Shown here: positions 11,205 through 21,989 of the stretch, piece after piece
Layout of the letters: each line of letters begins with the position of its first letter
How positions within the stretch are numbered: position 1 is the stretch's first letter
Assembly: GCA_036351795.1 (NCBI GenBank)
Contig: JAZBPW010000150.1
Span: 1,842-65,841, forward strand
Direction: 5' to 3'
Length of the DNA stretch: 64,000 bases
DNA from: Candidatus Zhuqueibacterota bacterium
Lineage (GTDB): Bacteria; Zhuqueibacterota; Zhuqueibacteria; Thermofontimicrobiales; Thiofontviventaceae
Made by a program: the position numbers and the translations under genes
Notes under the pieces: model-generated
Database searches by the model: none
What the model was told of the DNA's origin: nothing
Seen by the model: the letters and a program-made list of their open reading frames with translations, nothing else

Positions 11205-11253
11205 TATATACAAAATAGAGATCCGGGAAGCGTCTCTTCCCCGGATCTCTATT
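11205..11253 (-). terminator. Rho-independent terminator after the giant gene
   Basis: On the minus-strand RNA: AAUAGAGAUCCGGGGAAG-AGACG-CUUCCCGGAUCUCUAUU followed by UUGUAUAU. The stem is near-perfect and GC-rich (one bulged G). It lies 50 nt downstream of the stop at 11304. Confidence 0.75.
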
Positions 11254-11303
11254 CCTGTCCAATCTTGATGACTTCAAACCGTGTGCATAAAAATTGCTTG
11301 AGT

Positions 11304-11570
11304 TTACTTCATCAACATCATCTTCATCGTTTTACGATATTCCCCTGTCTGAATGACGCACACGTATACGCCAGTTGGGACATCATTCCCATACTCATCC
11401 AGGCCATTCCAGTGGATTTGATGGGTTCCGGCGTTTCTCGATTCATTCACCAATGTTACGATTTGCTGTCCCAGCAGGTTGAATATTCGCAAGTCGACCA
11501 TACTCTCTTCCGGAAGATCGAACGTAATAACCGTGGCATTATTGAATGGATTCGGATAGTTCTGCCACAG
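11304..11570 (-). other. T9SS type-A C-terminal sorting domain of the giant protein
   Basis: QNYPNPFN is encoded at 11541-11564. The last ~85 aa end ..GVYVCVIQTGEYRKTMKMMLMK. Confidence 0.75.
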
Positions 11571-14500
11571 CTTGTATTCCTGAGGAATCAGCTGTACCTC
11601 TTCATCCAAAGTACCGCTATTGGCGGCAAACTCACTTGCCACAGTCAGGTCCTTCCTGACCTCGATTCCGGAGATCTTGGGAGCATCCTTCGCATGACTG
11701 AATGCCAGGTCGATGCGGCCATCGCTGATCGTCAAACCCAGTGATCTGGTCGAAAAGGTGAGCGTCATTGCCGCATCATGGCCAGCCTGCGCGAAAATAT
11801 CGAGATCCGATACGATCTTGGTACCTTCGAGTGAGACGGACATGATACGCTTGTTGTCCGCGCTATAATATATCTCCGCCAGATGCAGGGTAATGAAATA
11901 GTCCTGATTGCTGGCGTCGATCTGGTATGTCGTCATTCCCCATCGCTCGGTCTGATATATGGGATCGAGATCAGTATTGGCAATCGGATCGAGGGTCTGA
12001 TAATTATTCCCACCTGTATATCCATATTCGCCGCTGCTGTAGGGTTGATCCGCCTGCCATGCAGCCCCGGTGATATCCGTGAGCGCTGGTCCGCCTGCAT
12101 TTATTCGAAGATCGCCCGAACTCACCTTGACGAACAGCGCCGAGTTTCCGCCATCAGAAAGGATGGTAAGAATATCTGAATACGTTCCTTCCGCCAATCC
12201 CGTCCTGTTGACCATCACATTCACTGTTGCAGATGATCCAGCTGCCAGGGTACCAGATTCCGGCAGTACCGACGAGATCCATGCTGCACGCCCCGTCGCC
12301 GGGATATTCCAGCTCAGCGGAAGATCTCCCGTATTGCTGACATCAAAATAGAGCGTATTGGCGAAATACCCGAATTCGAGACTCGGCGTGGACAGCGTTA
12401 ACTCCGGACCCGGAACTGTTACATTCATTTTCACTTCCACATTCTGATTACCGGCATTTGATGTAAATGGGATCACGCCTGTGTAACTCCCTTCCGATTC
12501 GCCGGATCTGTCTATGGTAACTGTCACATTCTGAGCGACACCGGCCGCCAAAGTACCGCTCGCCGGCTGTACATCCGTGATCCATGCCGTTGTAATCGTC
12601 CCCAGCTGCCAGGTCAATGAAGATCCACCGCTGTTCATCACTGATAATATTCCGGAAGTATTCGCGCTTCCGAGATCCAGGGATACCGGTGTGATCGTGA
12701 GCGCCGGTCCCGCTGGTGTATCAGGAGTAACTTCGATGGCAGATATCTTCGGCAGGTCCTTGCTCGAGCTGAAAGTCAAGTCAATACGTCCATCGGAAAT
12801 GGTCAAGCCAAGTGCTGAGGTGGATAGCGTGACCACATAAGCGGTATTTCTTCCGACCTCTTTGTAGATATCCAGTCCCTGAACGACTGTCGTCCCTTCG
12901 AGATTCACTGACATGACGCGTCTGTTCGTCGCCTTGAAATAGATCTCGGCAAAATGCAGCTTGATCTGATAATCCCCGTTTGGCACATCAAAACGGTATG
13001 CCGTCATCCGATATCGTTCGCTTTGGTAGAGTACATCGTTGGTCGTATTCGCAATCGATGAGGTCGTCGAATATTGATCACCACCGACATAACCAAAGCT
13101 TCCCGCTGTATGCTGTTTATCGGCTGACCACTGTTTACCCGTCGTGCTCGTATACTGTGGCCCGCCACAGTTGATACGCCAACCGAGGCTCGAGCCAACC
13201 TGGAGCTGAACCGGAACAGTCACGTTTCCGCCATTCGAAGTGACGCTCAGACTGCCGTTATATGTGCCATTGGTCATTCCCGTTCTATCCACTGCAACAG
13301 TTACACCGGCGCTCTCTCCTGCGAGCAGGCTACCGCTTGATGGAGTCACTGAACTGACCCACGAAGGTCTGCCGGCTGTCGAAATCTGCCAGTTCAATAT
13401 TTCCTGACCCGTGTTGTTGATCAATAAATTCAGACTGTTGACGGCATCGAGAAACGTGAGTGATGCCGGTGTCACAGACATCTGTGCCGAAGATCCCTGG
13501 ACGGACATACTCAGCTCCACATTCTGGCCACCCGCATTTGAACCTATGTTGAGGACACCGACATACACACCCTCAGCGAGTCCTGCTCTGTTAATGGAAA
13601 CAATCACATCCACAGATTGTCCCGGATTGAGGGCGCCATTCATCGGCTGAACTCCGGATATCCATGCCACGGATATCGTCTGGACTTGCCAGTTCAGCGC
13701 GGACCCGCCCGTGTTTGTTATTTTGAATGTATCATTGAGTGCTGTACTTCCGTAACTCAGCGTCGTTGGATTAATCACCATTTGAGGCCCGGAAGAAGCA
13801 ATGCCCGCCACTTCAATCGCCGAGATTTTGGGCAGATCTTTGTTCGCGCTGAACTCAAGATCGATGCGGCCATCAGTGACTGTTAGCCCCAGATCTTGAG
13901 TATTAAAAGAGAGAACATAGGCGGCATCATGCCCGGCAGCCGAATAGATATCCAATCCTTCAACAATCGGATCTCCCTCCAACTGCACATTGATCTTTCT
14001 TTTTCTGGCTGACTGGTGATAAATTTCTGCAAAGTGCAGCTTGATGCGATAGTCGCCATTTGGCACATTGAAGCGGTACGCAGTCATACCATATCTTTCC
14101 GATTGATACAGTGAATCATCATCCGTGTTCGCGATTGGATCCGCTGTGGCATAGCTATCACCGCCGACATAGCCGTAGAAATTTGAATTGAATGGCTGAT
14201 CGGCCATCCACAGATCTCCTCCCTTATCCACATATGCCGGACCACCGCAATTGACGCGCCAGGCATTTGGATCACCGGCCTTGATACTTAAATTCACATC
14301 GATATTGCCGCCGTCAGACGAGAAATGCAGCACGCCGTTATGTGTACCGGCAGCGAGACCGTTCCTGGTCGCTATGATGGTCACCTGCTGCGTGTTGCCC
14401 GGTGCTGTCACCCCATTTCCCGGTGTAATGGATGCAATCCATGCCGGCCTGTCCAGTGCCAGCACCTCCCATGTAAGCGGGAGATCACCGGTATTGACCA

Positions 14501-17500
14501 ATTCAACAGATAATGATGTCGAAAAATATCCGTAATTCAGGTCCGTTGGTGTCAATGCCATATTCGGAGCCGGCGTATGAACCTCCATCGAAACAGAGAC
14601 ATTCTTGCCACCTGCATTCGAATTGAAAGGTAGTACCGCATTATAGAAACCTTCGCTCAATCCGGCTCTGTTGATGGTCACATAGACATTTTCCGAAGTA
14701 TTAGCCGACAGTGTACCCGATTGCGGAAGAACACTTGTAACCCAGCTCGAACTGAAGCTGCCAAGATTCCATTGCAACTGGCTCTCACCGCTATTTCGCA
14801 CGACCAGCGTCTCCACCACCGCTACACGTCCGAAATCCAGAGAGGCCGGATTAATGGAGAATACAGGTCCCTGCGGCGCCATCTTAGTGACATAGATCGC
14901 GGAGATCTTTGCCTGATCTTTCACATTTACAAATCCGATATCCAGACGCCCATCAACAACCGATACACCAAGATCACGGGTATTGAAATTATATACCAGC
15001 GCGGCATCATGACCCGCCGCATCGAAGATATCCAGGTTTGTGAGCACCGGCGTCCCTTCAAGCGTAACTGACATCAGGCGAGTATTCCTGCTGTTGTGAT
15101 ATATTTCCGCGAAATGCAATTCAACTTCGTAATCTCCGTTAGGCACTGTAAATCTGTAAGAGCTCAAGCCGTAACGTTCACTCTGATAAAGTACGTCATC
15201 ATTTGTGTTACCGATGGGATCGCTGGTGCTGTAAGGATCGCCACCAACGTAACCAAAACTGCCGGCTGTGTAAGCCTGATCGGCGACCCATTGCTGACTG
15301 CTGTTATCCACGTATGCCGGTCCGCCACAATTGATTCGCCATGCCGATGGACCGCCGACATCCATCTCGATCGGGATATTTATATTTCCACCATTCGACG
15401 AGACAGCGAGAATATCGTTGTAACCGCCATCTCCAAGACCACTGCGATCTACAGTAACGGTCACCATTTGCGACTGGCCCGTACCCAGACTTCCGACTTG
15501 TGGTTGAACATTGGTTACCCAGGCAGAGGCCACATTGGAAACCGACCAGTTGAGAGTCCCGCTGCCGCTGTTTCTGACCTCCAGCTGCAACTGGCTATGG
15601 ATATTCTGGAAATCCAGAATTGCCGGTGATACCGAGAGATTCGGTTGTGGTATCTGCGGAGTACCCAGTATTCTCAGTTTGATCCCGTCCTCAGGATAAA
15701 CCAGATAGAATGTGTTTCCGTTCGCGCGAATGACGTGCTTGTTCCTCGATTCCGCGCAATCCCATCCGTCTGACAGCGCCACCGGATCACCCCAGGTCGC
15801 GCCGCCATCCTGTGAAAGCCGGGTTCTCAATTCGCCGTCCTCTGTGACCAGATATGCAGCGACAACGTTTTCACCATCTGCACTGGCTGCGATTGAACCG
15901 ATACCCATCTTGAATTTCCAATCATCGAGCTCACCCTTCCGGGTTACGCGCACATCGCGGACCTTTCCGCCATTCGAGAATCGAAGATATCTCAGGGATG
16001 GCATTTTATCCACTGTCTGATCGATCGCAACGCCGTAACATACATGCGTTCCATTGACATCATCGACAAAAACATCAGGTGATCCGTTCTCACCCGGCCG
16101 GGCGTCGATATTATTATGAAAATCCCCCATATAACCGAGCTGTCCACCGGGTGTGTTCGAACGCCAGTAGTAAATCGGCCCGCCGGATGACGGGTACGAC
16201 AGATCGCCGGCGATCAGATCAAGAAAACCACCGTCAGACACATCGACTTCATAGCGCTCATCTCCACGCGTCTGATCGATATTATCCTGATGATATATCA
16301 CCGCCCCGTTCTGTAGCACATACATATGAACCGGTCCGGTATTCGTTACGACATCTGTAACAGAACTATGGCAGTAGTAGATCCTGTCCGCGGAATCAGC
16401 GGCAAGTCGCACCACATATCCACGCAGTACATTATCTCCGATCTTCAGGGGTGTTGACCACCCTGTAGCCGATTTATAGGTGTAGTACAGGTCATATCTA
16501 TTACTGCTGCGATAGACACGATAGCCGATATGCGGATAATCCTGGCTGTCAACGGCAATCGACGCGCCGAATCGCATCATCCCCTCATCATTCTCCGCGC
16601 CCGGGACATTTTCCTCGAGCACGACATTTCCATACCTGTCGAGTTTGAAATAGGTAACCCCGTTCTTCATCACAAGCAGATGCAGATTCCCCGTACCTTT
16701 ATGGATATCCAGATCGGGTGTATCACCCGAAGATATCTGGATCGGGGAACTCCAGACATCGCTCAATGCATTTCCGATAAAAACAGGCGTACTCGATGTG
16801 GATATTTGTCCCGATGAGTCAACCACAGTCAATGTCGCCGTGTAAACATTATCAGCGGCATACACATGGTTCACCAGTTGACCGGTACCTGTCTGGCCAT
16901 CTCCAAAATTCCAGCTGTAACCGACGATACCGATATCGTCGTATGATGCACTCCCGTCCAGCGTGACGGAAAATCCGGCATCACCATAATAAGGTCCGCC
17001 GGCATCTGCGACCGGAGCTTGATCATTACTGTTACTGAAACTGATGAAACGCAGCTTTATTCCGCTCTCGACCGGATACACGAGATAGAACCGATTCCCT
17101 GTCGCCCGGATCACATGCTTGTCGCGACTTTCCGCACCACCACAATTGGCGGCCAAAAATTCCCGGTCTTCCCACGTTGTTCCGCTGTTCATTGAGAACG
17201 TCGAATATAGGTCGCCACCATCCGTGTGCGTGTACGCGACGGCAACGATCTGGCCGTTCGCCGAGGAGGCGATGGAAGCGATACCCTGATCCTGCTTCCA
17301 GGGGATACAATCGCCCTCGTTTGTCACGGTCACGTCCTTCACCTTGGATCCGTTCTGCCAGCGGCTGTATCGAACCGACGGCTTATTATTGACATCCGTA
17401 TCTTTTGCCGCACCATAACAGATATGAACAATCCCGCTGGCGTCTGTGAACACATCGGGACAACCATTTCTGTCGATTGCAGCGCCGTCATGAATATCTC

Positions 17501-19535
17501 CCAGGGTATTGATATTATCTCCGCCATCGAGAGATCTCCAGTATGTGACCGGTCCGCCATTCGGATTCGGACATCCCAGTATGATCTGCAGTTGATCGCC
17601 ATAGCTGGCATCTATCTCGACGCGGTCATCCGCACGATATGATGTGAGATTGTCCTGAGTATCGACTACCACTCCATTTTCAATGCGATAATACTTCACC
17701 GGTCCGAATACATCCGAAACAGCCGAGCCGCGTACGATGTGTACCCGGTTCTGTGAATCGATATCCATGCGCACCATGTATCCGCGAGTCACTCTGTCGG
17801 AAACGAGAAGAGGTGAACTCCACCCAGAACCTGTTTTATATACATAATAGATATTGAATTTGAAGTTACCCTCATCCGTACGATAACATACATGAGGATC
17901 ACCGTTATTATCCACGGCAACCGTGGCTCCAAAATACCCTTCGCCCGGGATACCTGCGGTGCCTGGGACATTTTCCTGAACAATAACATTGCCAAGCGCA
18001 TCCGTTTTCGTATAGACGACGCCGTTATTGAGGGAAACAATATGCAAATGTCCCGTCGCATGATCGATATCAAGGTCGGGTGCGGTGCCGGATGAGATGT
18101 TCAACTCCCCAGACCATTCCGCACTGCCGAAAGCGAGTGCAAAATTGGCTTCGACAAATTTATTGCCATCCATGGTAATCATGGTATTTGCATTCGAAGG
18201 ATTCGCGACATCACCCGTCCAGTTCACAAAATCGAATCCATTGCCCGGTGTTGCGCTCAAAGGAACATTGGTGCCGTATGGATATGTGTACGCACCGACC
18301 GCCGGACTGGTAGATCCACCGTCGAAAGGATTTACCGAAATTGTGAGTGTATACTCGGCTGTAGCAAAATTGGCAACCACATTTTTATCACCATTCATCA
18401 GGATGGTTGTAGAGGGGGAATTTGGATCTGCAACATCTCCCGTCCAGCTCACAAATTGATACCCTGTCGCCGCAACAGCAGATATGTTCACCTGCTGGTC
18501 TGAGGCATAGCTGTGATTGCCCACCGTTGGTGTCGTTGTCCCTCCCAGAGGGGGATCAACTGACATTTCGAGTGTGTATTGAACCATCTGAAAATTCGCC
18601 GTAATCACTTTATCATCGTCCATCGTCACCTGAGTGCTTGGATTCGCAGGGTCTGCGACATCACCAGTCCATCCCAGGAATACGTAGCCAGCCTCGGGAG
18701 TGGCAGTGACATTCACAATAGAACCGTGCCCATAGGTGTGAAAGCCGGCGCTTGGAACTGTTGTTCCTCCAGCACCGGGATCGACCTGAATAGTCAGCTG
18801 ATGTTGAATCGTTGTAAAATTTGCTGTGACGGTCTTATCCCCATCCATCGTGACTGTGGTGGATGCGATGTTCGGATCCTGGACATCACCGGTCCAGTTG
18901 ACGAACTGGAATCCTGTTGCCGGTGTCGCCGCGATATCCACGATATCACCCGGCGGGTACTGATGCGTCCCTGCCGCTGGATCGACTGCACCACCGTTGC
19001 CGGGATCCACCGCAGTCGTCAGAGTGAAGGAAGGACCTCCGATCGTAATCACAACAGCCGTCGTACCCAGCGCATCGAATGTCACACTGCTATCGCCCAA
19101 CGACACACCTGTCTCGTATTCATAAAATTGAATTTCACTCTGCTTTACATTATAAAACTCTCCCGGATCATCCAGCCATAACTTGAACAGCATCGTATCC
19201 CCCTGTACGAATCCGCATCCGGTCCCGTCATCGTTGGTGGCAATGATCTCTATCGGTTCATCCGGCGTTACGGGAGCAGTGAAGAGCGCCGCACCGACGC
19301 ATTCACCGGGTTCCGAGGATCCGAAAACACCGATCTCATCTCCGGCATCCAGATCCTGACCGTTATAGGTTACACCCGCAACAAAAATGTTCATCGGTGT
19401 GAATGGATTTTCACCCGGTGGAAGGCAGGATGTGATGTGAGTCTGTGAAAGTGCAATGCTGCTGAAAATAAAAATTGTCATTATCGTCAATATGACTGCC
19501 GATGGGAAATAACGCTTGTTCATTGTAAACTCCAT
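11304..19535 (-). CDS. Giant (2743-aa) T9SS-targeted surface/secreted glycan-binding-type protein: 4x InlB-B-like repeats, 2x Asp-box (BNR) modules, PKD, 7x Ig/BACON-like modules, 4x malectin, T9SS C-terminal domain
   Basis: One uninterrupted ORF. ATG at 19535; an alternative ATG at 19523 has GGAG 7 nt upstream. Signal peptide present. Asp-boxes SMNSGTTW and SQDGGATW. PKD-like '..GYSWNFGDG..'. Malectin-like modules '(A/G)WR(I/V)NCGGP..W.AD...GYVGG....I.NT.DD.LYQSERYG..YRF.VPNGDY...LHFAEIY'. C-terminal 'WQNYPNPFNNATVITFDLP'. Confidence 0.9.
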   Translation of the reverse strand: MEFTMNKRYFPSAVILTIMTIFIFSSIALSQTHITSCLPPGENPFTPMNIFVAGVTYNGQDLDAGDEIGVFGSSEPGECVGAALFTAPVTPDEPIEIIATNDDGTGCGFVQGDTMLFKLWLDDPGEFYNVKQSEIQFYEYETGVSLGDSSVTFDALGTTAVVITIGGPSFTLTTAVDPGNGGAVDPAAGTHQYPPGDIVDIAATPATGFQFVNWTGDVQDPNIASTTVTMDGDKTVTANFTTIQHQLTIQVDPGAGGTTVPSAGFHTYGHGSIVNVTATPEAGYVFLGWTGDVADPANPSTQVTMDDDKVITANFQMVQYTLEMSVDPPLGGTTTPTVGNHSYASDQQVNISAVAATGYQFVSWTGDVADPNSPSTTILMNGDKNVVANFATAEYTLTISVNPFDGGSTSPAVGAYTYPYGTNVPLSATPGNGFDFVNWTGDVANPSNANTMITMDGNKFVEANFALAFGSAEWSGELNISSGTAPDLDIDHATGHLHIVSLNNGVVYTKTDALGNVIVQENVPGTAGIPGEGYFGATVAVDNNGDPHVCYRTDEGNFKFNIYYVYKTGSGWSSPLLVSDRVTRGYMVRMDIDSQNRVHIVRGSAVSDVFGPVKYYRIENGVVVDTQDNLTSYRADDRVEIDASYGDQLQIILGCPNPNGGPVTYWRSLDGGDNINTLGDIHDGAAIDRNGCPDVFTDASGIVHICYGAAKDTDVNNKPSVRYSRWQNGSKVKDVTVTNEGDCIPWKQDQGIASIASSANGQIVAVAYTHTDGGDLYSTFSMNSGTTWEDREFLAANCGGAESRDKHVIRATGNRFYLVYPVESGIKLRFISFSNSNDQAPVADAGGPYYGDAGFSVTLDGSASYDDIGIVGYSWNFGDGQTGTGQLVNHVYAADNVYTATLTVVDSSGQISTSSTPVFIGNALSDVWSSPIQISSGDTPDLDIHKGTGNLHLLVMKNGVTYFKLDRYGNVVLEENVPGAENDEGMMRFGASIAVDSQDYPHIGYRVYRSSNRYDLYYTYKSATGWSTPLKIGDNVLRGYVVRLAADSADRIYYCHSSVTDVVTNTGPVHMYVLQNGAVIYHQDNIDQTRGDERYEVDVSDGGFLDLIAGDLSYPSSGGPIYYWRSNTPGGQLGYMGDFHNNIDARPGENGSPDVFVDDVNGTHVCYGVAIDQTVDKMPSLRYLRFSNGGKVRDVRVTRKGELDDWKFKMGIGSIAASADGENVVAAYLVTEDGELRTRLSQDGGATWGDPVALSDGWDCAESRNKHVIRANGNTFYLVYPEDGIKLRILGTPQIPQPNLSVSPAILDFQNIHSQLQLEVRNSGSGTLNWSVSNVASAWVTNVQPQVGSLGTGQSQMVTVTVDRSGLGDGGYNDILAVSSNGGNINIPIEMDVGGPSAWRINCGGPAYVDNSSQQWVADQAYTAGSFGYVGGDPYSTSDPIGNTNDDVLYQSERYGLSSYRFTVPNGDYEVELHFAEIYHNSRNTRLMSVTLEGTPVLTNLDIFDAAGHDAALVYNFNTRDLGVSVVDGRLDIGFVNVKDQAKISAIYVTKMAPQGPVFSINPASLDFGRVAVVETLVVRNSGESQLQWNLGSFSSSWVTSVLPQSGTLSANTSENVYVTINRAGLSEGFYNAVLPFNSNAGGKNVSVSMEVHTPAPNMALTPTDLNYGYFSTSLSVELVNTGDLPLTWEVLALDRPAWIASITPGNGVTAPGNTQQVTIIATRNGLAAGTHNGVLHFSSDGGNIDVNLSIKAGDPNAWRVNCGGPAYVDKGGDLWMADQPFNSNFYGYVGGDSYATADPIANTDDDSLYQSERYGMTAYRFNVPNGDYRIKLHFAEIYHQSARKRKINVQLEGDPIVEGLDIYSAAGHDAAYVLSFNTQDLGLTVTDGRIDLEFSANKDLPKISAIEVAGIASSGPQMVINPTTLSYGSTALNDTFKITNTGGSALNWQVQTISVAWISGVQPMNGALNPGQSVDVIVSINRAGLAEGVYVGVLNIGSNAGGQNVELSMSVQGSSAQMSVTPASLTFLDAVNSLNLLINNTGQEILNWQISTAGRPSWVSSVTPSSGSLLAGESAGVTVAVDRTGMTNGTYNGSLSVTSNGGNVTVPVQLQVGSSLGWRINCGGPQYTSTTGKQWSADKQHTAGSFGYVGGDQYSTTSSIANTTNDVLYQSERYRMTAYRFDVPNGDYQIKLHFAEIYFKATNRRVMSVNLEGTTVVQGLDIYKEVGRNTAYVVTLSTSALGLTISDGRIDLTFSSSKDLPKISAIEVTPDTPAGPALTITPVSLDLGSANTSGILSVMNSGGSSLTWQLGTITTAWITDVQPASGTLAAGVAQNVTVTIDRSGESEGSYTGVIPFTSNAGNQNVEVKMNVTVPGPELTLSTPSLEFGYFANTLYFDVSNTGDLPLSWNIPATGRAAWISSVLPESGTLAAGSSATVNVMVNRTGLAEGTYSDILTILSDGGNSALFVKVSSGDLRINAGGPALTDITGAAWQADQPYSSGEYGYTGGNNYQTLDPIANTDLDPIYQTERWGMTTYQIDASNQDYFITLHLAEIYYSADNKRIMSVSLEGTKIVSDLDIFAQAGHDAAMTLTFSTRSLGLTISDGRIDLAFSHAKDAPKISGIEVRKDLTVASEFAANSGTLDEEVQLIPQEYKLWQNYPNPFNNATVITFDLPEESMVDLRIFNLLGQQIVTLVNESRNAGTHQIHWNGLDEYGNDVPTGVYVCVIQTGEYRKTMKMMLMK
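11658..15650 (-). repeat. In-frame coding super-repeat: Ig-malectin followed by 3x (Ig-Ig-malectin), with ~1080-nt period
   Basis: The malectin N-terminal anchors (A/G/D)(W/L)R(I/V)N(C/A)GG are encoded at 15322-15344, 14241-14264, 13161-13184 and 12090-12113, giving spacings of 1080, 1080 and 1071 nt. The module ends KISAI(Y/E)V / KISGIEV are encoded at ~14889-14910, 13809-13829, 12729-12749 and 11658-11678. Confidence 0.9.
18141..19033 (-). repeat. Four tandem ~74-aa InlB B-repeat-like (Listeria-Bacteroides-type) coding repeats
   Basis: Repeat units start FTLTTAVDPGNGG, HQLTIQVDPGAGG, YTLEMSVDPPLGG and YTLTISVNPFDGG. Each ends ..F(V/L).WTGDV..P....T.(V/I)(T/L)M.GDK.V.ANF. Confidence 0.8.
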
Positions 19536-19679
19536 AAACTATTGATAATTCCTAGCAAGGCCAAAAAAGCAAGTTTCATACCATTAGTTTTTTCAATTTC
19601 TTAACACAATAACCTATTCATTATATTTATGATATAAATTTTAATGTATCTTTCAAAATATTAAACAGTGTATTATTAC

Positions 19680-19693
19680 GATACATATGTATC
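19680..19693. promoter_or_regulatory. Perfect 14-bp palindrome GATACATATGTATC in the AT-rich divergent control region (candidate operator)
   Basis: Read directly from the sequence. An extra ATGTATC half-site lies at 19644-19650. The palindrome sits between the divergently transcribed giant gene and the 19809 gene. Confidence 0.4.
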
Positions 19694-19808
19694 ATATAAT
19701 TAAATTATAATAAGTTAGAGGCTATTTCAAATATCGATGAAAAATGAAACAAAAACCCTGATCTTTCGTGTGATTATCATAACATGGTAAACAGCTAAGG
19801 CATCTTTT

Positions 19809-21989
19809 GTGGACGGAGTCAGAATAAACATCACAGGAAATCCACTTCTTTTTTCCCTCATCGCCGGGGTATTCATTGCTTTCAGTATCATGCTCTATCG
19901 CAGAACGAATCCGCCTGTTTCTGCTGCGTTGAGAAGAACGCTCACTCTTCTGCGTACCAGCGCTCTGATTATGATCGCTTTCTTACTCTTCGAGCCGCTG
20001 CTGACACTAAGGCTTAAACGGGATGATAAACCGGTCGTTGCCGTTCTCGTGGATAACTCCGCCAGCATGAGTTTGACCGATGCCGGAACGGTTCGTCCCG
20101 ATGAGTTGTCGCGCGTACTCAACCACTCGGTTTTCAATAATCCACCGAAAGACATACAGTTTGTATATTTCGCGTTTTCGAGCGGGCTTCGTGATCTCGA
20201 ACTTCAACCTGACGATTCTTTGACGTTCACGCAAGACGGGACTGACATTGCCACAAGCCTTCAGCAGTTGAAAACAAAACTTGAGCGAGCCAACCTTGCA
20301 GGCGTCATTTTGGCAAGTGATGGCAATTACAATATTGGAGAGAATCCCGCCAGATTGGCACAGGACTTTGGCACGCCTCTCTTTCCCATAGCCATCGGAG
20401 ATCCGACTGAGCAGAAAGACCTCCTTATCTCGAGTGTCCACACAAACCGGATCACCTATGTCGAAAACAAGGTTCCCGTCGATATCACTATACGGGCGCA
20501 TGGATATCGCGGCAAGAAGATCAGCATCAGGCTGCAGGAGGGCAGCGATGTCATCGATTCGAAGGAAATCGTTCTGAATAACAACGATCTTGAGACCAGA
20601 ACACGCCTTCATTTCACACCACTTGAACATGGCAATAAAAAATATTCTGTGATCATTCCCGCGCTCAGGAATGAGCTCACTTCGAAGAACAACAAGGCTA
20701 ATTTTTACGTCAAAGTGCTGAAGAGTAAAATGCAACTACTCCTGATTGCAGGAGGCCCGGGTCTGGACCACTCATTCTTATCCCGTACTCTGAAGGAAGA
20801 CGAAAACATCGAACTGACAACCCGCGTCATGAAGAACAACACTGTGTTCTACGAAGGCGATATGGCGTTCTCTCCCGAAGCGCTTGGTAAATATGATGGC
20901 TTCGTTCTGCTGGATTTCCCGAGAAGGCAAAGTTCACCCGCGACAGTCGATGCACTCGCCAGGGTTCTTTCAGAATCCGATAAAGCGCTCTTTCTGATCG
21001 GTGGTAAAAATATATTTTACCCGGGGCTCAGGCCGCTGCAGAAATTTCTGCCAATGGCCATAAATTCGTCGACCGGAAATGAAAAACTCGTATATACCAT
21101 GTTATCCGGCGAAGGAGGAATTCATCCCGTCATGCGCCTATCGGAAAACGACATTGAAAATCAAACCGTATGGAAATCACTTCCTCCGATTCACTATTCG
21201 CTGAGAAATGTAAAGCTCCTCGACGGAGCGAAATCCCTGCTCGATGTTGACAAACAGGCTTCCAATATCCTGAGCGAGACAGCCGCGCTTCCCGCCATCA
21301 TCACCAGAAACATCGGCTCTCAGAAAACGATTGTTATCCTCGGTTACGACATCTGGCGATGGAATTTCCTGATGCAGGGAATCGGTCAATATAGCGACGC
21401 GTACAGCCAGATACTGACAAACTGTCTTCGGTGGCTTACGACAAGAGAGGATAGTAAACGGGTCAGGATTTATCCTGAAAAGGAGGTCTATCGCAGCGGG
21501 GAAAAAATCACGATAAATGCTGAAGTCTACTTTGAGGATTACCGGCCGCTGGATGGAGCGGAGGTCAAAGTGAATATACAAAGCGATGGTGAATCAAACG
21601 AGATTTTGCTCTCAGGTATCGGGAATGGCAAGTACGAAGGGACATTTCAGGTTCTTAAAGCCGGTGAGTATACGTATGCGGGCACGGCCAGTAGTCGTGA
21701 CAGACTCATAGCAAAGGACAGTGGCAGATTTTCCATAGAGGAATTCAGCCTCGAATATCACGACACTAACATGAACGAAACCATTCTCAAGCAGATCGCG
21801 GAAAACAGCGGCGGTACATATCACACCGTTGAATCGATGGACGCTCTGGCTATAGAATTGGATTTTCCAACGAGAGTGACATACGAAGAAATTCAGTGGG
21901 AAATATGGAACAGGATATATTTGCTGATCACCATCATCCTGCTGCTGAGTATTGAATGGTACATCAGGAAAAAGAGAGGTATGCTATAG
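19809..21989 (+). CDS. Membrane protein with BatA-like N-terminal double-TM, a vWA-like MIDAS segment and a C-terminal TM anchor; function unknown
   Basis: GTG start; no ATG lies upstream of the first TM. Two N-terminal TM helices are followed by 'VAVLVDNSASMSL' (DxSxS MIDAS-like). C-terminal hydrophobic helix plus RKKRG. Confidence 0.6.
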   Translation: MDGVRINITGNPLLFSLIAGVFIAFSIMLYRRTNPPVSAALRRTLTLLRTSALIMIAFLLFEPLLTLRLKRDDKPVVAVLVDNSASMSLTDAGTVRPDELSRVLNHSVFNNPPKDIQFVYFAFSSGLRDLELQPDDSLTFTQDGTDIATSLQQLKTKLERANLAGVILASDGNYNIGENPARLAQDFGTPLFPIAIGDPTEQKDLLISSVHTNRITYVENKVPVDITIRAHGYRGKKISIRLQEGSDVIDSKEIVLNNNDLETRTRLHFTPLEHGNKKYSVIIPALRNELTSKNNKANFYVKVLKSKMQLLLIAGGPGLDHSFLSRTLKEDENIELTTRVMKNNTVFYEGDMAFSPEALGKYDGFVLLDFPRRQSSPATVDALARVLSESDKALFLIGGKNIFYPGLRPLQKFLPMAINSSTGNEKLVYTMLSGEGGIHPVMRLSENDIENQTVWKSLPPIHYSLRNVKLLDGAKSLLDVDKQASNILSETAALPAIITRNIGSQKTIVILGYDIWRWNFLMQGIGQYSDAYSQILTNCLRWLTTREDSKRVRIYPEKEVYRSGEKITINAEVYFEDYRPLDGAEVKVNIQSDGESNEILLSGIGNGKYEGTFQVLKAGEYTYAGTASSRDRLIAKDSGRFSIEEFSLEYHDTNMNETILKQIAENSGGTYHTVESMDALAIELDFPTRVTYEEIQWEIWNRIYLLITIILLLSIEWYIRKKRGML

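Follow-up and report, generated by a model that had tools for sequence, protein, structure and literature searches.

The 64,000-nt stretch of DNA analysed in this study (the window) belongs to a metagenome-assembled genome (MAG) of a Candidatus Zhuqueibacterota bacterium (3.15 Mb, 75% complete, 195 contigs), the nearest named relatives of which are candidate division KSB1 MAGs and, after these, a Caldithrix MAG. Within this window, a giant gene on the minus strand occupies 8.2 kb (GC content 50.9%) and encodes a protein of 2743 amino acids (aa) that combines two beta-propellers and four malectin modules with a series of spacer domains and ends in a sorting domain for the type IX secretion system (T9SS). 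The original prediction for this locus, made by a model from the nucleotide sequence without database searches, described an intact open reading frame (ORF), and this was borne out, as the gene is a single uninterrupted frame on the minus strand with no internal stop codon; at the base composition of the window, the chance of 2743 codons without a stop is ~1e-60. In-frame ATG codons occur at two positions separated by four codons, 19535 (2743 aa) and 19523 (2739 aa). Since the database copy of the protein, P0002, uses the second of these and is 2739 aa long, the start codon is ambiguous.

The domain composition of the protein was determined using Pfam and NCBIfam scans, and exact borders were taken from a self-profile scan (Table 1). 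By inspection, the N-terminus has the features of a Sec signal peptide, with K7 and R8 followed by an 18-residue hydrophobic core at positions 12-29 and then ...IALS/QT. Four InlB B-repeats (Flg_new_2) were recognised by PF18998 (173.7 bits over four stretches) and by TIGR02543 (50.1 bits, above cut-off), and the module between the two propellers matched PKD_4 in Pfam with 66.5 bits. The spacers between the malectin modules were called by Pfam as six BACON_2 and two HYDIN-type immunoglobulin (Ig) domains, and as seven Ig domains by the self-profile scan. Three Ig-Ig-malectin units start at residues 1558, 1918 and 2278, which gives an exact period of 360 aa (1080 nt), and are mutually 47-50% identical in protein sequence and 56-58% in DNA sequence. 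These results agree with the signal peptide, four InlB-type repeats, PKD module, alternating Ig/BACON-like modules, four malectin-like modules and T9SS tail that had been predicted, and the three motifs singled out at the time, SMNSGTTW (residues 781-788), SQDGGATW (residues 1241-1248) and QNYPNPFN (residues 2658-2665), were found where claimed. The last of these starts two residues upstream of the T9SS sorting domain, while the rest of the motif overlaps the domain. The predicted list of modules was correct in all that it named; it omitted a 139-aa N-terminal domain (residues 31-169) that precedes the InlB repeats.

Table 1. Features of the giant gene and its flanks, in window coordinates.
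Feature	Coordinates	Strand	Basis and remarks
Intrinsic-terminator-like hairpin and U-run	11210..11258	-	Folding; 46 nt 3' of the stop codon
Whole ORF, 2743 aa and stop	11304..19535	-	Alternative start ATG 19523 gives 2739 aa
T9SS type-A C-terminal sorting domain, aa 2660-2743	11307..11558	-	Pfam, NCBIfam
Linker, aa 2638-2659			
Three Ig-Ig-malectin units, aa 1558-1917, 1918-2277 and 2278-2637	11625..14864	-	Self-profile
Ig-like module (aa 1299-1390) and malectin/CBM57 module 1 (aa 1393-1557)	14865..15641	-	Pfam, self-profile
Propeller 2, aa 921-1295, Asp-box SQDGGATW (nt 15792-15815)	15651..16775	-	Paralogy with propeller 1
PKD module, aa 839-918	16782..17021	-	Pfam
Propeller 1, aa 469-835, single Asp-box SMNSGTTW (nt 17172-17195)	17031..18131	-	AlphaFold2, alignment
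Four InlB B-repeat (Flg_new_2) modules, aa 170-468	18132..19028	-	Pfam, NCBIfam, self-profile
N-terminal domain, aa 31-169, unannotated beta-sandwich	19029..19445	-	AlphaFold2 model; no Pfam match
Sec signal peptide, aa 1-30	19446..19535	-	Read from the translation by eye
AT-rich divergent intergenic region	19536..19808	.	24.5% GC; holds palindrome GATACATATGTATC

A search for homologues of the same architecture, which had been suggested as a check, returned five proteins in which the order propeller-PKD-propeller-Ig-malectin is colinear with that of the window protein. The database sources of P0003, P0004, P0005 and P0006 are ENA, NCBI, Logan and JGI; P0122 is a cluster representative. The domain stacking, which the original prediction did not know as described, is therefore shared in its core order by five other proteins of uncultured bacteria. 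The propeller-PKD-propeller core of these orthologues is 63-68% identical, and the repeats around it vary in copy number, from 0 to 4 for the InlB repeats and from 1 to 5 for the malectin modules; neither the N-terminal domain nor the long array of repeats seen in the window protein is present in P0006 and P0122. By module, identity between orthologues is 65-69% for the propellers, 61-64% for the PKD module, 51-61% for the malectin modules and 33-49% for the Ig spacers. Among the orthologues, an organism name is attached only to P0004, 'PKD domain-containing protein [candidate division KSB1 bacterium]'. A giant T9SS cargo with carbohydrate-binding modules (CBMs) is a known kind of protein, and the orthologues stand in databases under an uninformative name. 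Given that giant, CBM-rich multidomain T9SS cargos would be expected in the Fibrobacterota-Chlorobiota-Bacteroidota group, there is little surprise in the gene overall, and the only new element of the finding is an unclassified family of seven-bladed propellers.

An AlphaFold2 model of propeller 1, built from a 27-sequence alignment, has a pLDDT of 94.6, a pTM of 0.93 and 28 strands, and therefore seven four-stranded blades. As propeller 2 is a paralogue with 46% identity to propeller 1 over 366 residues, it was taken to have the same fold. Comparison of the propeller 1 model with the PDB using Foldseek returned propellers only. The lowest E-values (1.6e-10 to 1.5e-8) belonged to lectins of Photorhabdus and Chromobacterium, among them the Photorhabdus lectins PLL and PHL (E ~1e-10, template-modelling (TM) scores of 0.57-0.62). 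TM-scores were 0.60-0.66 for BT3686 and BACINT_00347, enzymes of glycoside hydrolase (GH) family 145/polysaccharide lyase (PL) family 42 (0.65-0.66 for 5MUK/5MUL), 0.64 for BACOVA_03493, 0.57-0.59 for the PL25 ulvan lyase (5UAM/5UAS), 0.52-0.55 for PL24 and 0.49-0.52 for six-bladed sialidases. Members of PL42 and PL25 are Pfam BNR_4 proteins, and GH145/PL42, PL24 and PL25 are seven-bladed (PMC8377490, PMC13193363). From the Foldseek neighbours, together with this BNR_4 membership of PL42 and PL25, we conclude that the modules are a new, distant branch of the sialidase/BNR_4 propeller superfamily and are not sialidases. Sialidase propellers have six blades and usually 3-5 Asp-boxes, and a six-bladed, GH33-type sialidase was ruled out by the seven blades and the one Asp-box per module. 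A sialidase-type reading of the two Asp-box modules named in the original prediction was accordingly not upheld, the BNR_4 scores also being below threshold.

Compared with the enzymes PL42 (formerly GH145; BT3686 and FoRham1), PL25 and PL24, the modules have in common seven blades, a single Asp-box, TM-scores of 0.52-0.66 and a weak BNR_4 signal, and both are secreted and glycan-related. They differ in that sequence identity is 10-14% and the Pfam score lies below the gathering threshold, and in that those proteins are enzymes of 400-500 aa, whereas here the propeller is duplicated inside a 2743-aa T9SS cargo. The lectins PLL, PLL2, PLL3 and PHL of Photorhabdus and CV39L of Chromobacterium likewise have seven blades, ~350 aa and TM-scores of 0.57-0.62. 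Lectins of the PLL/PHL type repeat one binding motif per blade and have several sites, whereas the blades here are dissimilar and no motif is repeated in all of them.

At the level of sequence, neither propeller reaches any Pfam threshold. BNR_4 (PF15892) scores 20.7 bits with the whole protein and 18.0 bits with the isolated module, against a cut-off of 27.3, and the sub-threshold match spans one blade motif only. BNR, BNR_2 and Sialidase gave no Pfam match in the propeller modules even at E-values up to 10, and the propellers found no match in NCBIfam or, by sequence search, in the PDB. A profile of the family matched sialidases in the PDB, through the single Asp-box only. As the sequence search of the PDB was empty and the profile search returned the Asp-box alone, no homology-based transfer of function is possible. 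When BNR_4 was searched for in the window's own genome, it returned only a 47-position fragment.

The extent of the propeller family was assessed by an exhaustive HMMER search over 1.84 billion representatives, with clusters formed at 50% identity. This gave 715 propeller-related clusters at E-values below 1e-3 and 69 at E-values below 1e-30, the weakest matches being proteins with many repeats of the blade motif. The position of the propeller is nearly always N-terminal. In close family members, it lies at the very N-terminus (~aa 20-400) of proteins of 600-1300 aa, with PKD, Big_9 or cadherin-like modules behind it and a T9SS tail at the end; as read from these sequences, the layout of the family is one of head, stalk and anchor. 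Some distant members, P0177, P0181 and P0183, are fused to CBM9_1, and such independent fusions to carbohydrate-binding modules (CBM57 here, CBM9_1 elsewhere) point to a glycan-related role. The few members that bear any name are called 'PKD domain-containing protein', and none has a functional name. Within the phylum, 58 of 167 genomes and 35 of 100 genera have at least one member, and the double-propeller form is confined, among the 167 genomes, to the window organism's own family. The window genome holds four copies of the propeller, two in the giant protein and one each in T9SS cargos of 1306 and 1011 aa.

Across family sequences that are only 23-69% identical, 11 polar residues are near-invariant: D22, H83, R119, Y121, R169, D171, D229, H239, Y242, E337 and R339 in module numbering (D487, H548, R584, Y586, R634, D636, D694, H704, Y707, E802 and R804 in the protein). 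All 11 are kept in both propellers. Placed along the strands of the model, the conserved polar residues sit in D-to-A loops or at the start of A strands, and D22, R119/Y121, R169/D171, D229 and E337/R339 fall in the loops that enter the innermost strand of blades 1, 3, 4, 5 and 7. We infer that the conserved residues would lie on one face of the propeller, at the rim of the central funnel. As these residues are unique to individual blades, and so differ from blade to blade, the arrangement suggests one central site and not a PLL-type site in each blade. Since the set has three arginines with acidic and aromatic partners, the predicted pocket probably recognises an acidic, carboxylate-bearing sugar; sialidases hold the carboxylate of their substrate with arginines.

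The four malectin modules were recognised by PF11721 (395.5 bits summed over the four, cut-off 23; E = 2e-119), far above the level at which the Pfam scan suggested in the original prediction would support a malectin assignment, and were also recovered by a six-frame search of the genome. In phmmer searches, E-values of 4e-14 to 2e-13 were obtained with animal malectins of solved structure and with CBM57-like modules from GH2 enzymes of Bacteroides. Xenopus laevis malectin is reported to contact di-glucose through Y67, Y89, Y116, F117 and D186 (PMC7783096). In modules 1-4, the positions of Y67 and Y116 are Tyr and that of D186 is Asp throughout, the position of Y89 is Y, Y, Y and W, and that of F117 is H, H, F and Y. 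As the five ligand-contact positions are kept, the malectin modules look competent for sugar binding, although the varying F117 position and the Trp at Y89 in module 4 set them apart from the Xenopus protein. Bacterial malectin domains are already known as CBM57 of the CAZy classification, for example in Bacteroides GH2 enzymes. The modules described here resemble animal malectin, a lectin of the endoplasmic reticulum, and CBM57, including that of the Bacteroides GH2 beta-glucuronidases (PDB 5UJ6, 6D50), in their PF11721 match and their contact positions; they differ in being present as four tandem copies, with Ig pairs between them, in a bacterial surface protein. Nine malectin domains were found in five ORFs of the window genome, which holds a second cargo with several CBM57 modules, a 950-aa ORF (G000:C114:56607-59189) in which three malectin domains are combined with a weak T9SS tail.

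The C-terminus of the giant protein scored above cut-off with both models for a T9SS sorting domain: TIGR04183, type A, at 36.6 bits (cut-off 23) and PF18962, Por_Secre_tail, at 30.6 bits (cut-off 27; aa 2660-2740). The same genome encodes T9SS machinery, with two PorU proteins (894 and 879 bits, cut-off 420) and one SprA (712 bits), as well as about 93 ORFs with a T9SS sorting domain. The giant protein hence fits a cargo exported by the T9SS, in support of what had been proposed from the QNYPNPFN tail. The two full-length PorU paralogues lie in tandem (G000:C118:1707-9018), and other giant T9SS cargos of this genome have 3462 aa (contig C106), 2707 aa (C108), 2323 aa (C163) and 2308 aa (C29). 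Searching the literature for KSB1 in combination with type IX secretion yielded no paper.

At the 3' end of the giant gene, a hairpin at ~11210-11258 with a 16-bp core stem is followed by UUUUGUAU and resembles an intrinsic terminator. It lies 46 nt past the stop codon, and the 109-nt stretch that holds it has a minimum free energy of -34.3 kcal/mol (z -3.75); a simple consensus scan did not pick it up. At the 5' end, the 273-nt spacer has a GC content of 24.5%, compared with 50.9% for the ORF. Both the strong terminator and the unusually AT-rich upstream region of the original prediction are thus present. The spacer is shared with a divergent gene at 19809-21989 on the plus strand, which encodes a 726-aa membrane protein with no Pfam family. 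As the giant gene has a 3' hairpin of its own and shares this AT-rich spacer with a divergent neighbour, it looks monocistronic. Between the two genes, at 19680-19693, lies a perfect 14-bp palindrome, GATACATATGTATC, which may be an operator.

The N-terminal domain that was absent from the predicted list has no Pfam match. Its AlphaFold2 model is a beta-sandwich (pLDDT 80.9) with no significant neighbour among PDB folds (TM-score at most 0.42). The fold spans ~110-140 aa and has the motif PMxI..GDEIGVF..CVG..DD..GF. Outside the orthologues, only two copies of this domain were detected, both in the C25 (gingipain-type) T9SS cargo P0271, where they lie near the C-terminus (aa 1288-1400 and 1625-1730).

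The genes next to the giant gene are housekeeping or envelope genes and do not form a polysaccharide-utilisation locus. Related loci were sought with an 8-sequence propeller alignment, and the ~ten neighbourhoods covered, here and around relatives, consist for the most part of housekeeping or unannotated genes and contain no SusC/D-type locus. Among them, P0177 (locus L025) is alone in having a clearly carbohydrate-catabolic context: the gene for this protein, which combines a propeller with Big_9 and CBM9_1, lies among genes for GH88, GH92, a sugar-binding protein, a sodium:solute symporter and a glycosyltransferase. P0195 (L023/L024) is a propeller relative of 491 aa that stands alone; its gene comes after two others on the same strand, one encoding a Ser/Thr kinase-AAA-TPR protein and one a 1332-aa VIT-vWA protein, and the arrangement is identical in two samples. 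In a KSB1 MAG, an orthologue of the 726-aa neighbour (39% identity over 724 aa; L007:2028-4217) occupies the same divergent position beside the orthologue of the giant gene. The possibility that this neighbour recurs beside other propeller genes was rejected, as a 727-aa ORF near the L014 propeller gene is unrelated and the neighbour is shared only by the orthologous locus L007.

Taken together, these data lead us to regard it as somewhat probable, if by no means assured, that the giant protein is a T9SS cargo, probably tethered at the cell surface, that serves as a multivalent glycan-binding protein for capture or adhesion. The Sec signal peptide would deliver the protein to the periplasm and the type-A C-terminal sorting domain (CTD) would route it through the T9SS, after which, by analogy with Bacteroidota, PorU would remove the CTD and the protein would be tethered at the outer membrane. 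The four malectin/CBM57 modules, spaced by poorly conserved Ig-like modules, would each present a malectin-type sugar site. The two paralogous propellers, which are the best-conserved part of the protein and the hallmark of the family, would each provide one conserved Arg/Asp/His/Tyr pocket round the central axis, on the face with the D-to-A loops, where an acidic sugar is probably recognised. Multivalent glycan binding fits this architecture since all four malectin/CBM57 modules keep their ligand-contact residues, and the mostly housekeeping gene context speaks for binding as well. The glycan-capture or adhesion role put forward in the original prediction stands as far as T9SS export and malectin binding are concerned; for the propellers, the role may be one of adhesion or of catalysis.

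Giant T9SS surface adhesins include SprB of Flavobacterium johnsoniae and the lectin-bearing RemA. Like the head-stalk-anchor fibrillar adhesins and the giant T9SS adhesins of Bacteroidota, the window protein has a Sec signal, N-terminal binding modules, Ig/PKD spacers and a T9SS domain; unlike the Bacteroidota adhesins, it comes from the phylum KSB1, and its binding modules are two propellers and four CBM57 modules. Among predicted fibrillar adhesins, propeller domains that overlap BNR_4 have been described, and their function was called ambiguous (PMC9210967).

Several points weigh against the glycan-binding reading. The geometry of the pocket was deduced from the strand topology of a canonical propeller and not from coordinates; the pocket may be catalytic and not just binding, as the best TM-scores are to PL42/GH145; and one distant relative, P0177, adjoins a GH88 gene. 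The protein could instead be a multimodular carbohydrate-active enzyme, in which the propellers form an unclassified PL or GH family, distantly related to the BNR_4 propellers of PL25, PL24 and PL42/GH145, that acts on a glycan with uronic or ulosonic acids, while the CBM57 modules target the substrate. We consider this possible but doubtful. The seven-bladed fold has its highest TM-scores to GH145/PL42 (0.65-0.66), 4irt (0.64) and PL25 (0.57-0.59), and BNR_4, sub-threshold here, is among the precomputed Pfam matches of the orthologues P0004 and P0006. The BNR_4 family holds the PL25 and PL42 lyases, which use His/His/Tyr and an Arg neutraliser on the anterior face (PMC8377490, PMC13193363), and the near-invariant set of the present family comprises three Arg, two His, one or two Tyr, three Asp and one Glu. 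The standard layout of a secreted carbohydrate-active enzyme also joins a catalytic module to several CBMs and a T9SS tail, and the propeller family has been fused to CBMs repeatedly, as in P0177, where the propeller and CBM9_1 sit with GH88, GH92, the sugar-binding protein and the symporter. GH88 acts on the products of lyases. However, the BNR_4 score is under the gathering threshold and covers one blade motif, no residue-level match to known catalytic sites was obtained, and the profile search of the PDB matched the Asp-box only. Moreover, only one of ~10 loci looks catabolic, the lowest Foldseek E-values go to lectins, and the layout is head-stalk-anchor.

In its most far-reaching form, the catalytic proposal is that the duplicated propeller founds a new polysaccharide lyase (or hydrolase) family, largely restricted to bacteria of the KSB1/Calditrichota type, in which the Arg/His/Tyr pocket cleaves an acidic glycan, and that the giant protein is a surface-anchored tandem-enzyme 'glycan harvester' targeted by its four CBM57 modules. 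We put this forward only tentatively.

A structural or cell-cell surface protein, for example in a matrix, in aggregation or in an S-layer-like coat, with propellers that contact proteins and malectin modules that bind exopolysaccharide made by the cell itself, appears improbable. The very large T9SS secretome with its several other giant ORFs would suit such a role, as would the conserved divergent pairing with the 726-aa membrane protein, the position of P0195 in a row of Ser/Thr kinase, VIT-vWA and propeller genes, and the fact that beta-propellers often mediate protein interactions. On the other hand, a strict charged Arg/Asp/His/Tyr set kept across 23-69% identity is seen more typically in small-ligand pockets than at protein interfaces, and the synteny with the membrane protein is found in one close relative only and may just reflect relatedness.

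Lastly, an assembly chimera or a collapsed repeat of paralogous genes, which the fragmented MAG (195 contigs, 75% complete) and the internal repeats of the gene might suggest, is very unlikely. DNA identity between the repeat units is only 56-58%, and exact repeats of 15 nt or longer are absent from the ORF, leaving nothing for an assembler to collapse. Furthermore, the module order is colinear in five other proteins from different sources, and ORFs of 2555 and 3013 aa with two propellers are present in genomes of the window organism's taxonomic family.

The propeller family described here is of note in that it folds well in the model, is strongly conserved and has been joined repeatedly to carbohydrate-binding modules, and yet is without a Pfam or NCBIfam model. 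If the propeller were catalytic, it would add a family to the CAZy classification. If it were a lectin, it would be a propeller lectin with a single site, and would offer a handle on how the uncultured KSB1 bacteria attach to, or harvest, polymers.

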